A DNA stretch of 24,658 bases, from IMG/VR virus record IMGVR_UViG_3300028327_000814; one strand, 5' to 3'. The position numbers and the translations under genes are program-made. The notes beneath the pieces are model-generated. The model made no database searches. It was not told the origin of the DNA and saw nothing but the letters and a program-made list of their open reading frames with translations. Shown piece after piece: positions 14,871-24,658 of this stretch (its first letter is position 1; every line of letters begins with the position of its first letter). Source of the stretch: a virus.

Positions 14871-15008
14871 ATGCTGGTATGGCAGACCAGCATTGACAGA
14901 AACATAGCGTATTCAAGCCCGATTTTTTAATGAGGGGTTGGCAGTTGCTATGTTCTGCCTATGCTGTTTGCCGCAGCGCCCTTCATTAAAGGATTGGGCT
15001 TATTTTAT
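14871..15008 (+). ncRNA. Structured cis-regulatory/antisense RNA with C4- or P4 CI-like architecture
   Basis: A 23-bp stem (14915-14937/14979-15001) encloses two hairpins whose loops are complementary to upstream 14881-14908. A leader hairpin lies at 14871-14893. Confidence 0.7.
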
Positions 15009-15025
15009 TGGTTTGGGAGTATAAA

Positions 15026-15910
15026 ATGACAGATGAATTTTCTACTTTTGTATTAAGTGAAACAACAGTTAATCAGATAAATGCGCTGCCGGATACCATG
15101 CAATTAAAATATTATAAGGCGGTAGCGGATTATGGTTTGAATGGGATAGAGCCTGATTTTATCGGAATGGAATTGGCTGTATGGATTTCAATGCGAGATT
15201 TAATCTTACACACAAAAAGAAAAGACGAAAAATGGCGGCAAAAACAACAGGAAAATGGGAAAAAAGGCGGTAGACCAAAAACCCAAAATAACCCAGATGA
15301 ACCCAAAAAACCCACCGAAACCCAAAATAACCCAGATGAACCCAAAAAACCCACCGAAACCCAAAATAACCCAGATGATAATTGGGTTAATACGGAAACC
15401 CATAATGACAATAACAATGACAATGGAAATGACAAGGATAATGAATTTACTCCAACGGCTTGTGCCGTTGACCAAAAAGAGATTATCCCTGTTTCACCAA
15501 AAAACAAAATTGCGCCCGTTTCCCAGCCGCCGCCCAAAAAACGGGGATCAGTTTTAACTGACGAGCAAAAACCTTTATTCCATGCCGCTAAAGCCTGTTT
15601 TGAAAGTTCCGAGAGGGCTAAAGCAATTATGTATCAGGACAGGGGATCAACGCAAATGCACATGGAAAACCTAAAATTATTTGTAGTCAGGTGTCAAAAT
15701 ATGGCTCCGGAAATAACCGCAGATTTTATGCGTAACGTGCTGGAGCATTTTAAGACAATTATCAACGGCAAATTAAAAGGCAGAGCCGAATTTACGCCCA
15801 GAGCCTTAATTACCCCGTGGATATGGGAAATGGTTATAGGCACGTTGCCGGAAGCCGATGACGAACTGACGGAAAAAATAAGGGCAAGCATAAAGGGGAT
15901 GTTTCAATGA
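15026..15910 (+). CDS. Phage replication initiator with DUF6291-like N-terminal domain
   Basis: YKAVADYGLNGIEPDF...ENGKKGGRPK, then a repeat linker and a DN-rich tract; GGGAG RBS before ATG 15026. Confidence 0.8.
   Translation: MTDEFSTFVLSETTVNQINALPDTMQLKYYKAVADYGLNGIEPDFIGMELAVWISMRDLILHTKRKDEKWRQKQQENGKKGGRPKTQNNPDEPKKPTETQNNPDEPKKPTETQNNPDDNWVNTETHNDNNNDNGNDKDNEFTPTACAVDQKEIIPVSPKNKIAPVSQPPPKKRGSVLTDEQKPLFHAAKACFESSERAKAIMYQDRGSTQMHMENLKLFVVRCQNMAPEITADFMRNVLEHFKTIINGKLKGRAEFTPRALITPWIWEMVIGTLPEADDELTEKIRASIKGMFQ
15281..15378 (+). repeat. 39-bp tandem repeat (about 2.5 copies), probable origin iterons
   Basis: Unit ACCCAAAATAACCCAGATGAACCCAAAAAACCCACCGAA, with an AACCCA core recurring about every 10 bp. 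Confidence 0.85.
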
Positions 15911-18150: not shown

Positions 18151-18548
18151 AACGAATATCTTTTAACCCCCGTTTTATAAACGAAGCTGGAAACGACTTA
18201 ATCAGCGGCAAGATACACACGATACGCCAAAACTATGACTACTGGAAAAAGTTTGAAGGTAAAGAATTAGCCCTGTTTACATGGGAAGGCAAGCCGTACA
18301 ACAGCAAGCAGAGAGTGTTTTGCGTGAAGCGGCTTGTCAGCGTACAAAAAGTATTAAGAAGGCCATGGGTAACAGCAGTTTACGCAGACGATAATTTCAG
18401 AATGGAATTTGAAGGCAAATATTTTGCTAACGCAGAAGACATGGCGCATAATGACGGCTTCAAAGATAAATATGAGTTTAGAGACTGGTTTAAAAGTTAC
18501 CCATTTGGCGAAATGGGAATACTTCATTTTACAGATTTTCAATATTGA
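18147..18548 (+). CDS. ASCH/PUA-like domain protein
   Basis: GKIHTIRQ, LFTWEGKPY, MAHNDGF...FRDWF. Confidence 0.65.
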   Translation: MKRISFNPRFINEAGNDLISGKIHTIRQNYDYWKKFEGKELALFTWEGKPYNSKQRVFCVKRLVSVQKVLRRPWVTAVYADDNFRMEFEGKYFANAEDMAHNDGFKDKYEFRDWFKSYPFGEMGILHFTDFQY

Positions 18549-18558
18549 AGGAGAAAAC

Positions 18559-19398
18559 ATGAACTTAAACAATAAAATTGAATGGCTACAAGGCGGAGCA
18601 ACATGGAACCCAGTTACGGGGTGTCTGCATAAATGCCCTTATTGTTATGCCGCTAAAATAGCAAAGAGGTTTGGCGGTAATTTTACGATGTCAAGAGCAA
18701 GTCCACATGGATTATTAGAGCTTTACGGAAAACCAGAAAATCCTTTTCCAGATAAATTTGACCCTACATTCCACCGCTACCGCCTAGACGAACCGCAGAA
18801 AATAAAGAAACCGCAAAATATCTTTGTATGCTCTATGGCTGACCTGTTCGGGGATTGGGTTCCCGATGAATGGATACAGAGGGTGTTTGACGCTTGCAAA
18901 GCCGCACCGCAACATCGGTACTTATTCCTGACGAAAAACCCTGAGCGGTACAACTACATAAACTGCGACGGGCAAACCCTTGAAGGCTGTAAAAAATGCA
19001 ATGAATGTGAGGGGGAACACCGGGTATTGACAATATACCGTGAAGAGGAAGAGCCTTTTCCTGAATTATTCTTGGGCGCGTCGGCAACCGACAGCGACAG
19101 CCTGCATAGGGCTTATGACAGTGCCGCCGAATGGGTTTCGATTGAACCTTTACTTGATGATGTATATGATGAATGTTTTTCGCAGGACGGAGAAACGCCC
19201 GTAGGTTATAGGGAGTGGGCGCGTTGGAAATGGGTTGTTGTCGGCGCGGAGAGCGGAAACAGAAAAGACAAGGTTATCCCAAAAAAAGAATGGGTACAAA
19301 ACATCGTTGATATGTGCAAGTTTTGGAACACGCCCGTATTTATGAAAGACAGCCTAAAAGACGTTTATGGCGGGCTGATACGGGAATACCCGTGGTAA
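18559..19398 (+). CDS. DUF5131 (Gp37Gp68) family radical SAM-like protein
   Basis: TWNPVTGCLHKCPYCYA, IFVCSMADLFG, FLTKNP, SIEPLL, WVVVGAESG, PVFMK; GAAGGAG RBS before ATG 18559. Confidence 0.9.
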   Translation: MNLNNKIEWLQGGATWNPVTGCLHKCPYCYAAKIAKRFGGNFTMSRASPHGLLELYGKPENPFPDKFDPTFHRYRLDEPQKIKKPQNIFVCSMADLFGDWVPDEWIQRVFDACKAAPQHRYLFLTKNPERYNYINCDGQTLEGCKKCNECEGEHRVLTIYREEEEPFPELFLGASATDSDSLHRAYDSAAEWVSIEPLLDDVYDECFSQDGETPVGYREWARWKWVVVGAESGNRKDKVIPKKEWVQNIVDMCKFWNTPVFMKDSLKDVYGGLIREYPW

Positions 19399-19415
19399 AC
19401 AAGGAGGATATTTAA

Positions 19416-19916
19416 ATGACGTATGTAAAACTTGATATGGAAAAATACATAGAAGGAAAGCCACAGCCGGAAGGGTTTTTTAACGCATTATCACATAATC
19501 AGGCTTATTCTGGCAAAATAAAACCTGATGAATGGTTGGACAAAATTCAAGAGCTTGTCAATTATTTAACTGACGGCGAACTGCCCGAAGGCGTTGAATG
19601 TAAAAGCCCTAAATTATCTCCAAGCATGGCACAAAATGTTCTTTGGTTTTTACAGGAAATAACAAAAATAATACCCGATAATTTTGCGATTTGCGACGGC
19701 TGCGGGGTGTTACATGAGGAGGGTTATTTGAAATACTTTACAACCAACGGGAAATACTATTGCGATTATTGCCTTGATTCCGCGCCCGTAGTCCATTGTG
19801 AAGAATGCGACGAAGAAGCTGGTTATAAAAAAGACGCTTATTCAGAAAAACACGAAATGTATCTTTGCAAGGAATGTAAAAAGATAAAAAGAGAAACTGA
19901 TATTGTTAAACCCTAA
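19416..19916 (+). CDS. Hypothetical protein with four CxxC pairs
   Basis: CDGC, CDYC, CEEC, CKEC; AGGAGG RBS. Confidence 0.7.
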   Translation: MTYVKLDMEKYIEGKPQPEGFFNALSHNQAYSGKIKPDEWLDKIQELVNYLTDGELPEGVECKSPKLSPSMAQNVLWFLQEITKIIPDNFAICDGCGVLHEEGYLKYFTTNGKYYCDYCLDSAPVVHCEECDEEAGYKKDAYSEKHEMYLCKECKKIKRETDIVKP

Positions 19917-19948
19917 AAACCGGACAAATATAAACAAGGAGAAATAAT

Positions 19949-21064
19949 ATGCTTCAAACCTTACAGCTTTTCGGAGAATCATGCCATTTATTAGAACTAT
20001 CCATGAACCCCTGTGTGCAGGGATGCACCTATTGTTACTCTAAAACATGGAAGCGCGAAGACCACCCTATCGAGAAGGTAGTTAATAACATTCTTCACCT
20101 GGAAACCAAACAGGAAGGCTTGCTGCCCTTCTTAATAAGAAAACGCTGGCCAATTACGATTAGCAACAGGACGGACGTAATGTGCGCCCCCGACTGGCGG
20201 GAAAGGCTGTCAGCTATCAAAAAATTAGGCTTCCCGGTCTGCATGGAGACCAAACTGAACAAGGACTATAAGGATTTAGCCCAGATACTCGACCCCAAAA
20301 CTGATCCGATATATCAAACAATAACCGGATTTAACAACAAGTATGAAGAGCATAACCTGTTAAGCCCTGAAGAAAAAATAGAGGCAGCCAAGTGGTTTGT
20401 AGAAAACGGTTTTCATTTTACCTTAGCGGTTAATCCCTTTATGCCGGACAAAGTAACGGCTGAGGAGATTAAAAAGCTCATAGACCTAATAAAGCCCCAC
20501 GGATTAGTCATGTACGATTACCACAAAACCACAAAATCAGTCCATAAACACCTTTATATGGCCGAGTACCCCAAAGAACAAATGGAAGCGGGAAGAAAAG
20601 CCGTGTCCGATTACTGCCGCGAGAAAGGAATACACCACGCCATAGGGGGATTTGAAGAACACCCCTACCCCGAATTAAATCTGAATCTTTACATGAATGA
20701 GAAGTTTTTTGGCGGCAACGCGATAATCTTCCAAGAACTGTTGATTGACGTGATCTCTCAATTCTCCCCCGAATTTGACGTTTTCGATATAACCTTTGAC
20801 ATCTTCTGCGACTTCTACCATAAGCAGATCAAGTATTTTGACGGCTGTATTATGAAAGACACCGATTACTCATTGGGAAGCATAAGGCATCCCTTCAAAT
20901 TCGCCCAGAAAAGATTTGACTTCACCTATTTCTTAAAGAACCTGTGGAACCAGAAGAAACTTCATTTTAATTTTGACTGGTACTCCGATAAATTCGACGA
21001 TGAAGGAAACCTTGTCTATTTCAGGCATAAAGACGGGTTTATGAAAGAGATAGACAAGCGGTAA
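19949..21064 (+). CDS. Radical SAM protein, SplB/photolyase-like subgroup
   Basis: NPCVQGCTYCY (CxxxCxxC), ISNRTD, ETK, TITG, VNPFMP. Confidence 0.8.
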   Translation: MLQTLQLFGESCHLLELSMNPCVQGCTYCYSKTWKREDHPIEKVVNNILHLETKQEGLLPFLIRKRWPITISNRTDVMCAPDWRERLSAIKKLGFPVCMETKLNKDYKDLAQILDPKTDPIYQTITGFNNKYEEHNLLSPEEKIEAAKWFVENGFHFTLAVNPFMPDKVTAEEIKKLIDLIKPHGLVMYDYHKTTKSVHKHLYMAEYPKEQMEAGRKAVSDYCREKGIHHAIGGFEEHPYPELNLNLYMNEKFFGGNAIIFQELLIDVISQFSPEFDVFDITFDIFCDFYHKQIKYFDGCIMKDTDYSLGSIRHPFKFAQKRFDFTYFLKNLWNQKKLHFNFDWYSDKFDDEGNLVYFRHKDGFMKEIDKR

Positions 21065-21860: not shown

Positions 21861-22277
21861 ATGCCGGTATTAACCACCGAAGAGATTAAAAACGACGTTG
21901 AAAGCCTGCTGGGAAAGCCCAAACACCCCGGCGGCAGGCCGAAAAAGCCCAAATATGTCATAAAAAGCATGGTCAAAATAATTGACGAATACACCGACAA
22001 AGCCTTAATTCCAATATTGAAAGAGTGCTGTTTTGAAAATAACTGGGGATACGATTATGTCATGGAACTGGAGCGGAAACATGAAGAGTTATCACGGTCT
22101 ATAAAAAGGTTAAAAACAAGGAAGGAAGCCGTATTGGAAAAAATGCTTTATACGGGGCAGAACAACACGGGGTACATATTCAGCCTCAAACAATTGGGCT
22201 GGAGGGACAAATTTGAAGTTACCGCGCCGGATAACGTGGAAGTGCCTGTCTTTAACAGCGGGAGATTAAGCAAGTGA
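21861..22277 (+). CDS. terS: Terminase small subunit
   Basis: GGRPKK N-terminus and IFSLKQLGWRDK; directly upstream of terL. Confidence 0.8.
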   Translation: MPVLTTEEIKNDVESLLGKPKHPGGRPKKPKYVIKSMVKIIDEYTDKALIPILKECCFENNWGYDYVMELERKHEELSRSIKRLKTRKEAVLEKMLYTGQNNTGYIFSLKQLGWRDKFEVTAPDNVEVPVFNSGRLSK

Positions 22278-23665
22278 AAGAGATCGACATTCCCGACACC
22301 GTAGGCAGCGGGTATGATGATTTTTGGCTGACGGAGAAACGGTATCGGGTCGTGAAGGGCGGCAGGGCAAGCAAGAAGAGTTGTACGTCCGCTTTATGGT
22401 TTGTCTTTTTTATGATGTGGTATTTCCACACATACGGATTGAAACCCTGTTTGTTAGTCGTCCGCAAATATTACAATACTCATAGAAATTCCACCCGCTC
22501 CCAACTTATATGGGCTATAAACAGGTTGGGCGTTCAAAACTGGTGGAAAATCCCCAAAGGCGAAAACACCCTCACTTATTTGCCGAGCGGTCAAGTAATC
22601 TTATTCAGGGGCATGGACGATCCCGACAGCATAACCTCTATAACGGTATCTGACGGGCATTTGGTATGGGCGTGGATTGAGGAAGCCTACCAGCTGCACG
22701 ATGAACAGGCTTTTGACAAGTTGGATATGAGTTTCAGGGGCGAAGTACCTTATCCCCTGTTCAAGCAGTTGACTTTGACCTTTAACCCGTGGAGCGACAC
22801 CACGTGGATTAAACCCCGGTTTTTTGACAATCCCGATGAGGACACTTTCACCCTTACAACGGACTATACCTGCAATGAGTTTCTGGGAGACGACGACAGG
22901 GCTATCTTTGAGAAAATGAAGGTAAACAGCCCCCGAAGGTTCGCCATCGAGGGGCTGGGGAATTGGGGCATTGCTCAGGGCTTGATTTACGGCACTTATA
23001 CCGACAATCCAGATTTATTCCATGTTCCCGACATTCCCGAAGGCGAAAAGATAGCGATTATTACGGCAGGGCTGGATTACGGCTCAGGCGAATTGGGGGA
23101 CGGCACAAAAAAAGGCAAAACGACCTTAGAGGCGACGGCGATAACAACGGGATTTGAAAGGGTCTATGCCGTTGACGAATCGTTTTTTAAGACCGACTAT
23201 GACGCTGACGAATTGGCTGAATGGGCAGTGGAATTTCTTAAAAAACTGAAGGAGCGGTACAATCTGCCAATTATTCTTTACTCCGAATGGGCGGGGGGAA
23301 TGGCGTTAAATAACCAGATTAGAAAGAAAATCAGGTTAAGCGGGCTTTTAGGGGTGTCCGTCCAGAACTGCTATAAAGGGCAGATTAACGACCGTATAGA
23401 CTTGGAGCAAATTCTGCTGTCCGAAAAGCGGCTGTTTTTTACCGCCCGTGTGCCGGGGCTGAAAGCCGCCTACTCTACCGCCATATGGGATACCGAGAAA
23501 CAGAAAAAAGAGGGAAAACCGATAAGGCTTGACAACGGCACAATCTTAATTGACCCGCTAGACGCGCATGAGTACAGCATAAACAGTTACGCGAATTATT
23601 TAACGGCTTTTACTCCAAAAGAACCGCGCCAATATAAACACGGGTTGAAAGTTACTGCTTCTTGA
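22274..23665 (+). CDS. terL: Terminase large subunit, PBSX family
   Basis: KGGRASKKS (Walker A), FRGMDDP, WIEEA (Walker B), TFNP, GLDYG nuclease motif, DPLDAHEY. Confidence 0.92.
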   Translation: MKEIDIPDTVGSGYDDFWLTEKRYRVVKGGRASKKSCTSALWFVFFMMWYFHTYGLKPCLLVVRKYYNTHRNSTRSQLIWAINRLGVQNWWKIPKGENTLTYLPSGQVILFRGMDDPDSITSITVSDGHLVWAWIEEAYQLHDEQAFDKLDMSFRGEVPYPLFKQLTLTFNPWSDTTWIKPRFFDNPDEDTFTLTTDYTCNEFLGDDDRAIFEKMKVNSPRRFAIEGLGNWGIAQGLIYGTYTDNPDLFHVPDIPEGEKIAIITAGLDYGSGELGDGTKKGKTTLEATAITTGFERVYAVDESFFKTDYDADELAEWAVEFLKKLKERYNLPIILYSEWAGGMALNNQIRKKIRLSGLLGVSVQNCYKGQINDRIDLEQILLSEKRLFFTARVPGLKAAYSTAIWDTEKQKKEGKPIRLDNGTILIDPLDAHEYSINSYANYLTAFTPKEPRQYKHGLKVTAS

Positions 23666-23834
23666 TTTTCGGTCTGCCTCTGGGCGGCGCGTTAATTATT
23701 ATTTCATAAGCGGAATTGTCATAAACAGCCTCTTTAGTTAAAGGTTTAATTCCCGCCGCTTCCAACCTTTTCTTGACCGTCTTTAATTTAAGCCCTGATT
23801 TTTCCGCCATTTCGCTGGCTGTCATTCCCTTCAT
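23652..23834 (-). CDS. Small HTH DNA-binding protein with C-terminal RGRPK (AT-hook-like)
   Basis: MTASEMAEKSGLKLKTVKKRL HTH; divergent from the RAMP-like gene; minus-strand TATAAT at 23853-23858. Confidence 0.75.
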   Translation of the reverse strand: MKGMTASEMAEKSGLKLKTVKKRLEAAGIKPLTKEAVYDNSAYEIIINAPPRGRPKIKKQ

Positions 23835-23875
23835 TCCCCTATTATCGGCTAAATTATAAAAAAAATATAGATAAA

Positions 23876-23918
23876 AAACTATATTTTACTTGACAAAATA
23901 TAGTTTATAAACGATAAT
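23876..23918 (+). promoter_or_regulatory. Sigma70 promoter with an inverted-repeat operator straddling the -35
   Basis: TTGACA(23890)-17 nt-GATAAT(23913); AAACTATATTTT-7 nt-AAAATATAGTTT at 23876-23906. Confidence 0.8.
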
Positions 23919-23972
23919 TTTACAAGCCCCGCCTGTATAGGCAGGGTAAAAAATATCTTTAGGAGAAAAACT

Positions 23973-24632
23973 ATGGCGAGAACAGCGAAAAAGGAAGAGG
24001 AAGTAGTAACCCTCAAAGAGTTGAAAGTCGAGCCGTTGACTTTAACGGTAAAGGGCGATTCACCCCTTGTAGTCCATGCTTGGGGAGAAAAGGCGCGGCG
24101 TGAAATGCTGGACAAGCAGATGAAAAAGGCAAAATCCGTAAAGGAAGCGAGAAACCCCGCCGCCGATGTCATTAATTCCCTGTACTGGATTGACGGCAAG
24201 CCAAAGGAAATGACCGAAGACGCTTTTAACGAAGCGATTAAAAAGGGCGCGAGGTTCGGTTTTCCCGCAAAGGCTTTTAAGGCGGCGGCGGTATCGGCTG
24301 GTTATCGGGCGGGAACTATTAAAAACAAAGTTACCATGTTTGCCGCTTTTCATATTCAGGGCGAACTGGTAGAGATTATCGGCAAGCCAAAACCCAGAGA
24401 AGACATGGTACGATTGGCGGGCGCGAGCGGCGTTGCGGATATACGGTTCAGGGGCGAATTCCCCGAATGGAAAGCCGTATTAAATATTACTTTTTGCCCC
24501 GACATGATTTCTCTTGAACAAATAGTAAACCTGTTTAATCTTGGTGGCTATTGTTGCGGCGTTGGTGAAATGCGCGTTGAAAAGGGCGGCGAAAATGGAA
24601 TGTATCACGTTTTGACCAAAGGCGAAAAATAA
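23973..24632 (+). CDS. Stand-alone Cas7/RAMP-like protein (candidate Vipr-type RNA-guided effector)
   Basis: LTVKGDSPLVVH first strand, FGFPAKAFKAA (PxSSLKG-like), REDMVR...DIRFRGEF thumb hairpin, C-terminal G-rich loop GVGEMRVEKGGENGMY; AGGAG RBS. Confidence 0.75.
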   Translation: MARTAKKEEEVVTLKELKVEPLTLTVKGDSPLVVHAWGEKARREMLDKQMKKAKSVKEARNPAADVINSLYWIDGKPKEMTEDAFNEAIKKGARFGFPAKAFKAAAVSAGYRAGTIKNKVTMFAAFHIQGELVEIIGKPKPREDMVRLAGASGVADIRFRGEFPEWKAVLNITFCPDMISLEQIVNLFNLGGYCCGVGEMRVEKGGENGMYHVLTKGEK

Positions 24633-24637
24633 AACTT

Positions 24638-24658
24638 GGCAGGCAGGGCATGACGCGT
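24638..24658 (+). ncRNA. Possible start of a GGY-NN periodic guide-like RNA, truncated by the window end
   Basis: GGC-A-GGC-AG-GGC-AT-GAC-GC-GT begins 5 nt after the RAMP stop codon; only 21 nt are visible. Confidence 0.45.

Follow-up and report, generated by a model that had tools for sequence, protein, structure and literature searches.

Our analysis indicates that the 219-aa gene at 23973-24632 (+ strand) of the window, by which we mean the whole 24,658-nt stretch of viral DNA analysed (bases 2549-27206 of a 38,709-bp IMG/VR virus record), very probably encodes Vipr, a small protein resembling Cas7 that serves as the subunit of a phage VIPR (Viral Interference Programmable Repeat) system. 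The system is already known and the locus is a further natural member of it: VIPR is an RNA-guided DNA-silencing system described in preprints dating from April to October 2026 (bioRxiv 10.64898/2026.04.26.720920; structures in 10.64898/2026.04.26.720927), with types numbered I-VII (10.64898/2026.04.26.720920). The locus combines a RAMP fold, homology to the Vipr protein of SUSP1, the residues that contact GGY and an adjacent array (at least four tandem YNNGG/GGYNN units) with hypervariable NN positions and units overlapping by one base. It lies in a viral context devoid of cas genes and CRISPR, and natural targets can be read from it with one nucleotide skipped. We are confident in reading the whole as a VIPR cassette with a promoter, vipr and a staggered array damaged at its fourth guide, the accessory gene being absent from the record; such a cassette would be carried as a moron by a temperate phage.

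A first-pass annotation, made from the DNA alone, had described the gene as an orphan, non-CRISPR RAMP that polymerises on guide RNA to silence rivals, and had named VIPR as a fit. The identification was sound, as the system exists in the literature and the locus shows those of its defining features that we tested, and the functional proposal gains support from the fold, the homology, the contact residues and the array. The gene is not an orphan, because a guide array begins 6 nt past its stop codon.

The Vipr protein

The open reading frame is intact and starts with ATG. No Pfam model exists for the protein, and among PHROGs it matches phrog_4652 only, a family of unknown function. The family is large and metagenomic: a word-indexed search returned 1,445 clusters at the 90% identity level, and an exhaustive one (E <= 0.001) gave 2,871 at the 50% level. 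The peptides picked out in the first-pass annotation are all present in the translation and could be placed in an AlphaFold model built with 26 homologs (pLDDT 82, pTM 0.75): the LTVKGDSPLVVH stretch forms strand 1 and its turn and ends in H35, FPAKAF starts RRM helix-1 (residues 99-113), R158 and R160 belong to a hairpin at 155-174, and the glycine loop spans 195-209. When this model was compared with 48,161 PDB representatives, the top 46 rows were all CRISPR RAMPs, led by Csm3 (9g9a_D; Z 10.0, rmsd 3.8, 151 aligned residues) and followed by Cmr4, gRAMP, type VII, IV and I Cas7, then Cas6 and Cas5, with sequence identities of 7-18% in the structural alignments. Foldseek also placed Csm3, gRAMP and Cas7 at the top, so that the comparison with Cas7, Csm3 and Cmr4 suggested beforehand did return a RAMP fold. 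Like the Cas7 backbone of type III systems (Csm3/Cmr4), the protein has an RRM core, a thumb and a G-loop, and it would be expected to form a filament on guide RNA with one protomer per repeat; unlike that backbone, it follows a 5-nt rather than a 6-nt register and is accompanied by no CRISPR repeats, Cas10, Cas5, Cas6, Cas1 or Cas2.

Sequence comparison points to a nearer relative. A profile of the 26 homologs run against the PDB gave one significant chain, the SUSP1 Vipr protein (36pp_D, E 1.9e-6; next chain, E 0.47), to which the single sequence is only remotely similar (E 0.11). Cryo-EM of the SUSP1 complex has shown that each G-G-Y is held by H17, R138, D177, W178, R179 and C173 (10.64898/2026.04.26.720927), and HMMER alignments pair these residues with H35, R160, E199, M200, R201 and C195, respectively. 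The histidine, both arginines and the cysteine are identical, and aspartate is replaced by glutamate. The protein thus shares with the type II VIPR of SUSP1 and Pseudomonas fulva, the systems characterised by experiment, the Vipr fold and the contacts to G1, G2 and Y3 (H, R, acidic, R, C), but differs from SUSP1 in having Met in place of W178. Across the family, five of the six contact positions are invariant or near-invariant (alignment A1); position 200, where this subclade has Met but most others have Trp, is not among them. This Trp-to-Met change in the G-loop was considered as a cause of the many G-T-T pentamers in the array and rejected, since the fraction of pentamers with GG hardly differs between loci with Met (0.75) and loci with Trp (0.74).

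The vrRNA array and the Mu-like prophage

Six nucleotides past the vipr stop codon and on the same strand begins a G/T-rich GGYNN tract with 5-nt periodicity; our search found no terminator-like site between the two. The window holds the first 21 nt of this vrRNA array (24638-24658, + strand), namely the leader junction GGCAG/GC and the first pentamers of guide 1, and the array runs on beyond it to a total of 231 nt or about 46 pentamers (record 27186-27416; window-equivalent end 24868). Whereas 1000 dinucleotide-preserving shuffles gave 1.9 +/- 1.3 GGY(i)/GGY(i+5) pairs (maximum 7), the array contains 15, and its G-G autocorrelation peaks at lags 5 and 10; elsewhere in the 38.7-kb record, on either strand, there is no 100-nt window with even four GGY pairs. 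Tandem Repeats Finder did not detect the array, and Rfam 15 holds no family matching it. At each GGCAG/GC junction (record 27190, 27254, 27308 and 27382) the 5-nt phase slips by -1, which divides the array into units of 13, 11 and 15 pentamers and a truncated fourth of about 7. Guides 1-3 comprise 39 in-phase pentamers, every one with G as its first base; in 27 a second G follows, and in 12 it does not. Judged by its phase, the array matches the published staggered arrangement, where each vrRNA shares one base with the next (10.64898/2026.04.26.720920, fig. S18 legend), and the locus agrees with staggered VIPR also in pairing a small single-RRM RAMP with a same-strand GGYNN array of variable NN, borne by a phage and without cas genes. 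In the type II systems of SUSP1 and P. fulva, by contrast, each unit carries a structured tail of ~40 nt, whereas here the units are joined directly by GGCAG/GC.

The pairing of gene and array holds throughout the family. Examination of homolog neighbourhoods, as proposed in the first-pass annotation, showed a same-strand array adjoining the vipr homolog in 100 of the 106 related loci with at least 300 nt of downstream sequence, while array-like tracts away from vipr homologs numbered only six in about 0.8 Mb of related loci. At least two GGCAG/GC junctions were present in 81 of the 100 arrays. Four loci whose Vipr is 85-90% identical to this one keep the junctions and the GGY but have entirely different NN, and their nucleotide homology to this phage is restricted to vipr, ~30 nt upstream of it and the first 20-130 nt of the array. 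The cassette follows terL here, lies between head-morphogenesis and scaffold genes in locus L003, and between tail-terminator and minor tail protein genes in L005; because it is placed differently among phages, we regard it as a mobile moron. In 88 of 111 relatives the array or vipr is followed by an accessory gene of 140-185 aa (phrog_15946, no Pfam match; for example, 4919-5416 in L003). The model of its product (pLDDT 91) gave weak winged-helix-type matches only (best Z 5.9); this fits, without proving, a correspondence with the "WH-like" Vap proteins of the VIPR preprint. The product is a different protein from the accessory protein of SUSP1 and P. fulva type II. Neither tblastn nor a profile search found a match to this gene in the 38.7-kb record, a departure from staggered VIPR, although an accessory vap gene is typical of VIPR loci rather than universal.

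This copy further departs from staggered VIPR in the fate of its last guide. The array breaks off with a TG at record 27416. Two ACGCAAG-containing repeats with a spacing of 22 bp come next, and after them, in inverted orientation, a 206-aa gene of unknown function, a tyrosine recombinase that adjoins tail-fibre genes, and tail and baseplate genes of Mu-like type. The Mu-like region occupies record 27416-38709 (about 1017-12310 in L113) and includes a tape-measure gene; longer contigs with the same Mu-like genes add GemA, Mor, Mu protease, gpT, sheath and tube. From the TG terminus, the repeats and these genes, as read at the one junction seen, it follows that the array borders directly on one end of a Mu-like prophage, which truncates guide 4 to about 7 pentamers. 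A 51-kb contig that shares this vipr ends in the early region of the prophage. Since the record ends within the inserted prophage, the accessory gene may lie beyond it.

Such a break raises the question of whether the insertion, together with loss or separation of the accessory gene, has left a disabled remnant of a VIPR system. The abrupt end of the array beside Mu-like genes would agree with this, as would the lack of a vap-like gene in the record, given that Vap1 is needed for natural protection in SUSP1 infections, and the 12 of 39 pentamers in guides 1-3 that lack the second G. We nonetheless consider inactivation unlikely. The vipr gene is full length, with its promoter and every residue invariant in the family intact, and three guides are complete; in the published work, Vipr and vrRNA alone silence reporters and phage lambda. 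The accessory gene may be situated past the prophage and outside the record. The degeneracy of the pentamers, moreover, is equal across the family (GG fraction 0.74-0.75), and degenerate G-T-C and G-T-T pentamers occur inside guides that match targets, so they still carry guide information.

Predicted targets and mode of action

Targets were predicted by the published 1-nt-skip rule, with each GGY replaced by one wildcard base. Read in this way, guide 1 (12 NN pairs) gives at codon positions 1-2 the sequence S-I-A-H-E-L-G-H-Y-V-L-K, that is, the HEXXH active-site motif of ImmA/IrrE (Peptidase_M78). Its 8-pair seed had 31 matches in IMG/VR. In seven of them the context was R-F-S-I/M-A-H-E-L/F-G-H and the guide agreed with the target at 5-6 of the 8 bases left over; five of the IMG/VR matches of guide 1 were confirmed as Peptidase_M78 (ImmA/IrrE). 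A 10-pair seed had six matches in metagenomes, each of them in frame at a site of the RFSIAHELGHYVL type and scoring 22-25 of 26 overall; the best metagenome matches reached 24/24 and 25/26, and L260 matches all 24 guide bases. As the motif is widely conserved, the target is resolved to the motif and not to a specific rival element. ImmA/IrrE genes control prophage and ICE induction; with such a gene silenced, a rival prophage or ICE would be unable to cleave its repressor.

The truncated guide 4 reads M-T-V-Y-[D/E]-[I/M]-[F/L]. Five related portals of the A118 family (P0277, P0278, P0280, P0281 and P0282) begin MTVYEIL, and a sixth begins MTVYEVL. At the DNA level, the match of the guide to the portal of the nearest relative (MTIYEVL) is 12/14, as expected by chance in 80 kb, and support for guide 4 is therefore confined to the protein level; an exact search for it in metagenomes found nothing. 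Guide 3 may read a major-capsid motif: its best match covers 24/28 bases and 12/14 residues of a C-terminal motif of a major head protein, and is not significant after correction (105 seed matches). The seed matches listed in one other search with this guide extended at chance level only and were rejected as targets, and its 3' half had no IMG/VR match. Silencing of a portal or capsid gene would stop packaging by a related superinfecting or co-resident phage. No target was found for guide 2, the full-length 1-nt-skip patterns of guides 1-3 had no exact match in IMG/VR, and the guides matched neither this record itself nor, above shuffled controls, the 0.84 Mb of related loci.

Within the family as a whole, an all-against-all comparison yielded 15 matches of guides to other loci, against 1-3 for shuffled guides, and several of these fall on rival vipr genes. 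One concerns the present locus: the first guide of L005, whose Vipr is 90% identical, has a predicted target inside this vipr (24453-24487, + strand; GEFPEWKAVLNI), where 21/24 NN bases match in codon register, as against 19/24 on the vipr of L005 itself. This looks like VIPR-against-VIPR targeting. In SUSP1 and P. fulva type II, with which the locus shares the 1-nt-skip logic, guides are likewise directed against competing mobile elements and against the vipr genes of rivals. As in staggered VIPR, the predicted targets lie in coding DNA, and the base that is skipped falls at the wobble position.

By analogy with SUSP1, one Vipr protomer would bind each pentamer, holding G-G-Y through H35, R160, E199, M200, R201 and C195, and the filament would present the two variable NN bases, pair with double-stranded DNA in a two-read, one-skip register and block transcription. 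RNA processing, DNA binding and silencing at this locus are what we infer from these comparisons, and the cassette would probably serve to shut down competing temperate phages that share its host. It might be argued instead that the filament binds RNA, as type III Cas7/Csm3 backbones do, because the solved structures nearest to its fold (Csm3, Cmr4 and gRAMP) target RNA, and because the predicted coding targets lie on the sense strand in codon register. This seems to us very unlikely: published VIPR binds double-stranded DNA and has targets on both strands, and some of the all-against-all matches lie on the antisense strand of vipr (a guide of L054 on both L059 and L011).

Still less can be said for an anti-CRISPR decoy, the alternative raised in the first-pass annotation, in which a free Cas7 mimic would soak up host crRNA or poison assembly of Cascade or Csm. 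The Cas7-like fold and the location in a phage are compatible with it, yet in nearly all related loci (100/106) the gene comes with a GGYNN array of its own; the GGY-specific contact residues are retained, and a homologous protein has been shown to work with such RNAs. The decoy idea found no support and we regard it as extremely improbable. That the protein is a stray subunit of an ordinary CRISPR-Cas locus outside the window, as the fold alone might suggest, is a possibility that we consider negligible, since the flanks are phage genes and searches of the 38.7-kb record and of the 51-kb contig that also carries the gene turned up neither a cas gene nor a CRISPR repeat.

Genomic setting, regulation and significance

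The first-pass annotation had reported neither cas genes nor a CRISPR array in the window, and this is true also of the rest of the record and of the 51-kb contig, in which the complete cas operon and array that it had named as a refutation did not turn up; the arrangement that defines class 1 CRISPR-Cas, a cas operon beside a CRISPR repeat-spacer array, was thus not found. Upstream of vipr lie terS (21861-22277) and terL (22274-23665; phrog_3717, E 1.5e-57), and the remainder of the window is taken up by phage replication, recombination and methylase genes. The earlier placement of vipr right after terL is correct as to the upstream neighbour, except that a 60-aa ORF on the minus strand (23652-23834) comes between the two. 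The only hint to the host from portal comparison is a portal with 51% identity in a Treponema MAG.

This intervening ORF is divergent from vipr and encodes an HTH-like protein with a basic RGRPK tail, for which HTH matches (Sigma70_r4_2, HTH_24) stayed below threshold. Each of the four closest loci (L002-L005) has a homolog of it, likewise on the minus strand and 128-144 nt upstream of vipr, and we consider the protein a probable regulator of the VIPR cassette. The promoter previously credited to vipr is indeed there, as a sigma-70-type TTGACA-17-GATAAT at 23890-23918 (+ strand; 39-67 in L113) with 11 of 12 consensus matches, and AGGAG stands 7 nt ahead of the ATG. Its -35 box is bracketed by a perfect 12-bp, operator-like inverted repeat (23876-23887 and 23895-23906; span 23876-23906), to which repeat family D2 is related and which has an extra half-site at 23862-23872. 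Together, the HTH-like gene and the inverted repeat look like a repressor-operator pair. The 5' UTR of vipr also contains two tandem GGYNN pentamers (GGCAG GGTAA, 23940-23949) like the leader of the array; the pair could be a site of Vipr autoregulation, and its conservation in relatives is limited to the 3' part.

These elements invite the tentative suggestion that the clade is a regulated subtype of VIPR, with guides tuned to conserved protein motifs (the HEXXH site of ImmA/IrrE, the first portal codons and a capsid motif) and expression gated by the divergent HTH repressor and the operator at the -35 box. Because the skipped base is at the wobble position, a single guide could in that case act against an entire family of rival prophages in spite of synonymous changes. 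Neither motif-tuned guides nor HTH/operator gating is described in the VIPR preprints consulted, and we consider this reading rather doubtful.

Three other features of the window are recorded here. At 2867-2936 the Rfam tRNA model matches with 32.6 bits (gathering score 29), and ARAGORN predicts no tRNA in the window, so we refer to a tRNA-like element. Three tandem 39-nt copies (two identical, one 64%) at 15279-15395 lie within a 300-aa ORF (15008-15910) that is DUF6291 on a matching contig; they are iteron-like and possibly mark an origin inside a replication gene. Finally, a DUF5131 protein (phrog_2045) and a 371-aa, faintly radical-SAM-like protein (18409-21064), directly upstream of a ParB-like gene and terS, may form a module for nucleotide or DNA modification.

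In summary, the locus leaves the published picture of VIPR unchanged and adds to it an example outside Enterobacteria and Pseudomonas, drawn from a large metagenomic family. It contributes clear staggered junctions together with a candidate regulator and operator, a natural case of an array broken by another mobile element, and a set of predicted targets made up of the motif of a lysogeny-switch peptidase, the start codon region of a portal gene and, for a related guide, a rival's vipr gene. As VIPR is a discovery only months old, each well-dissected natural locus helps to define its range.
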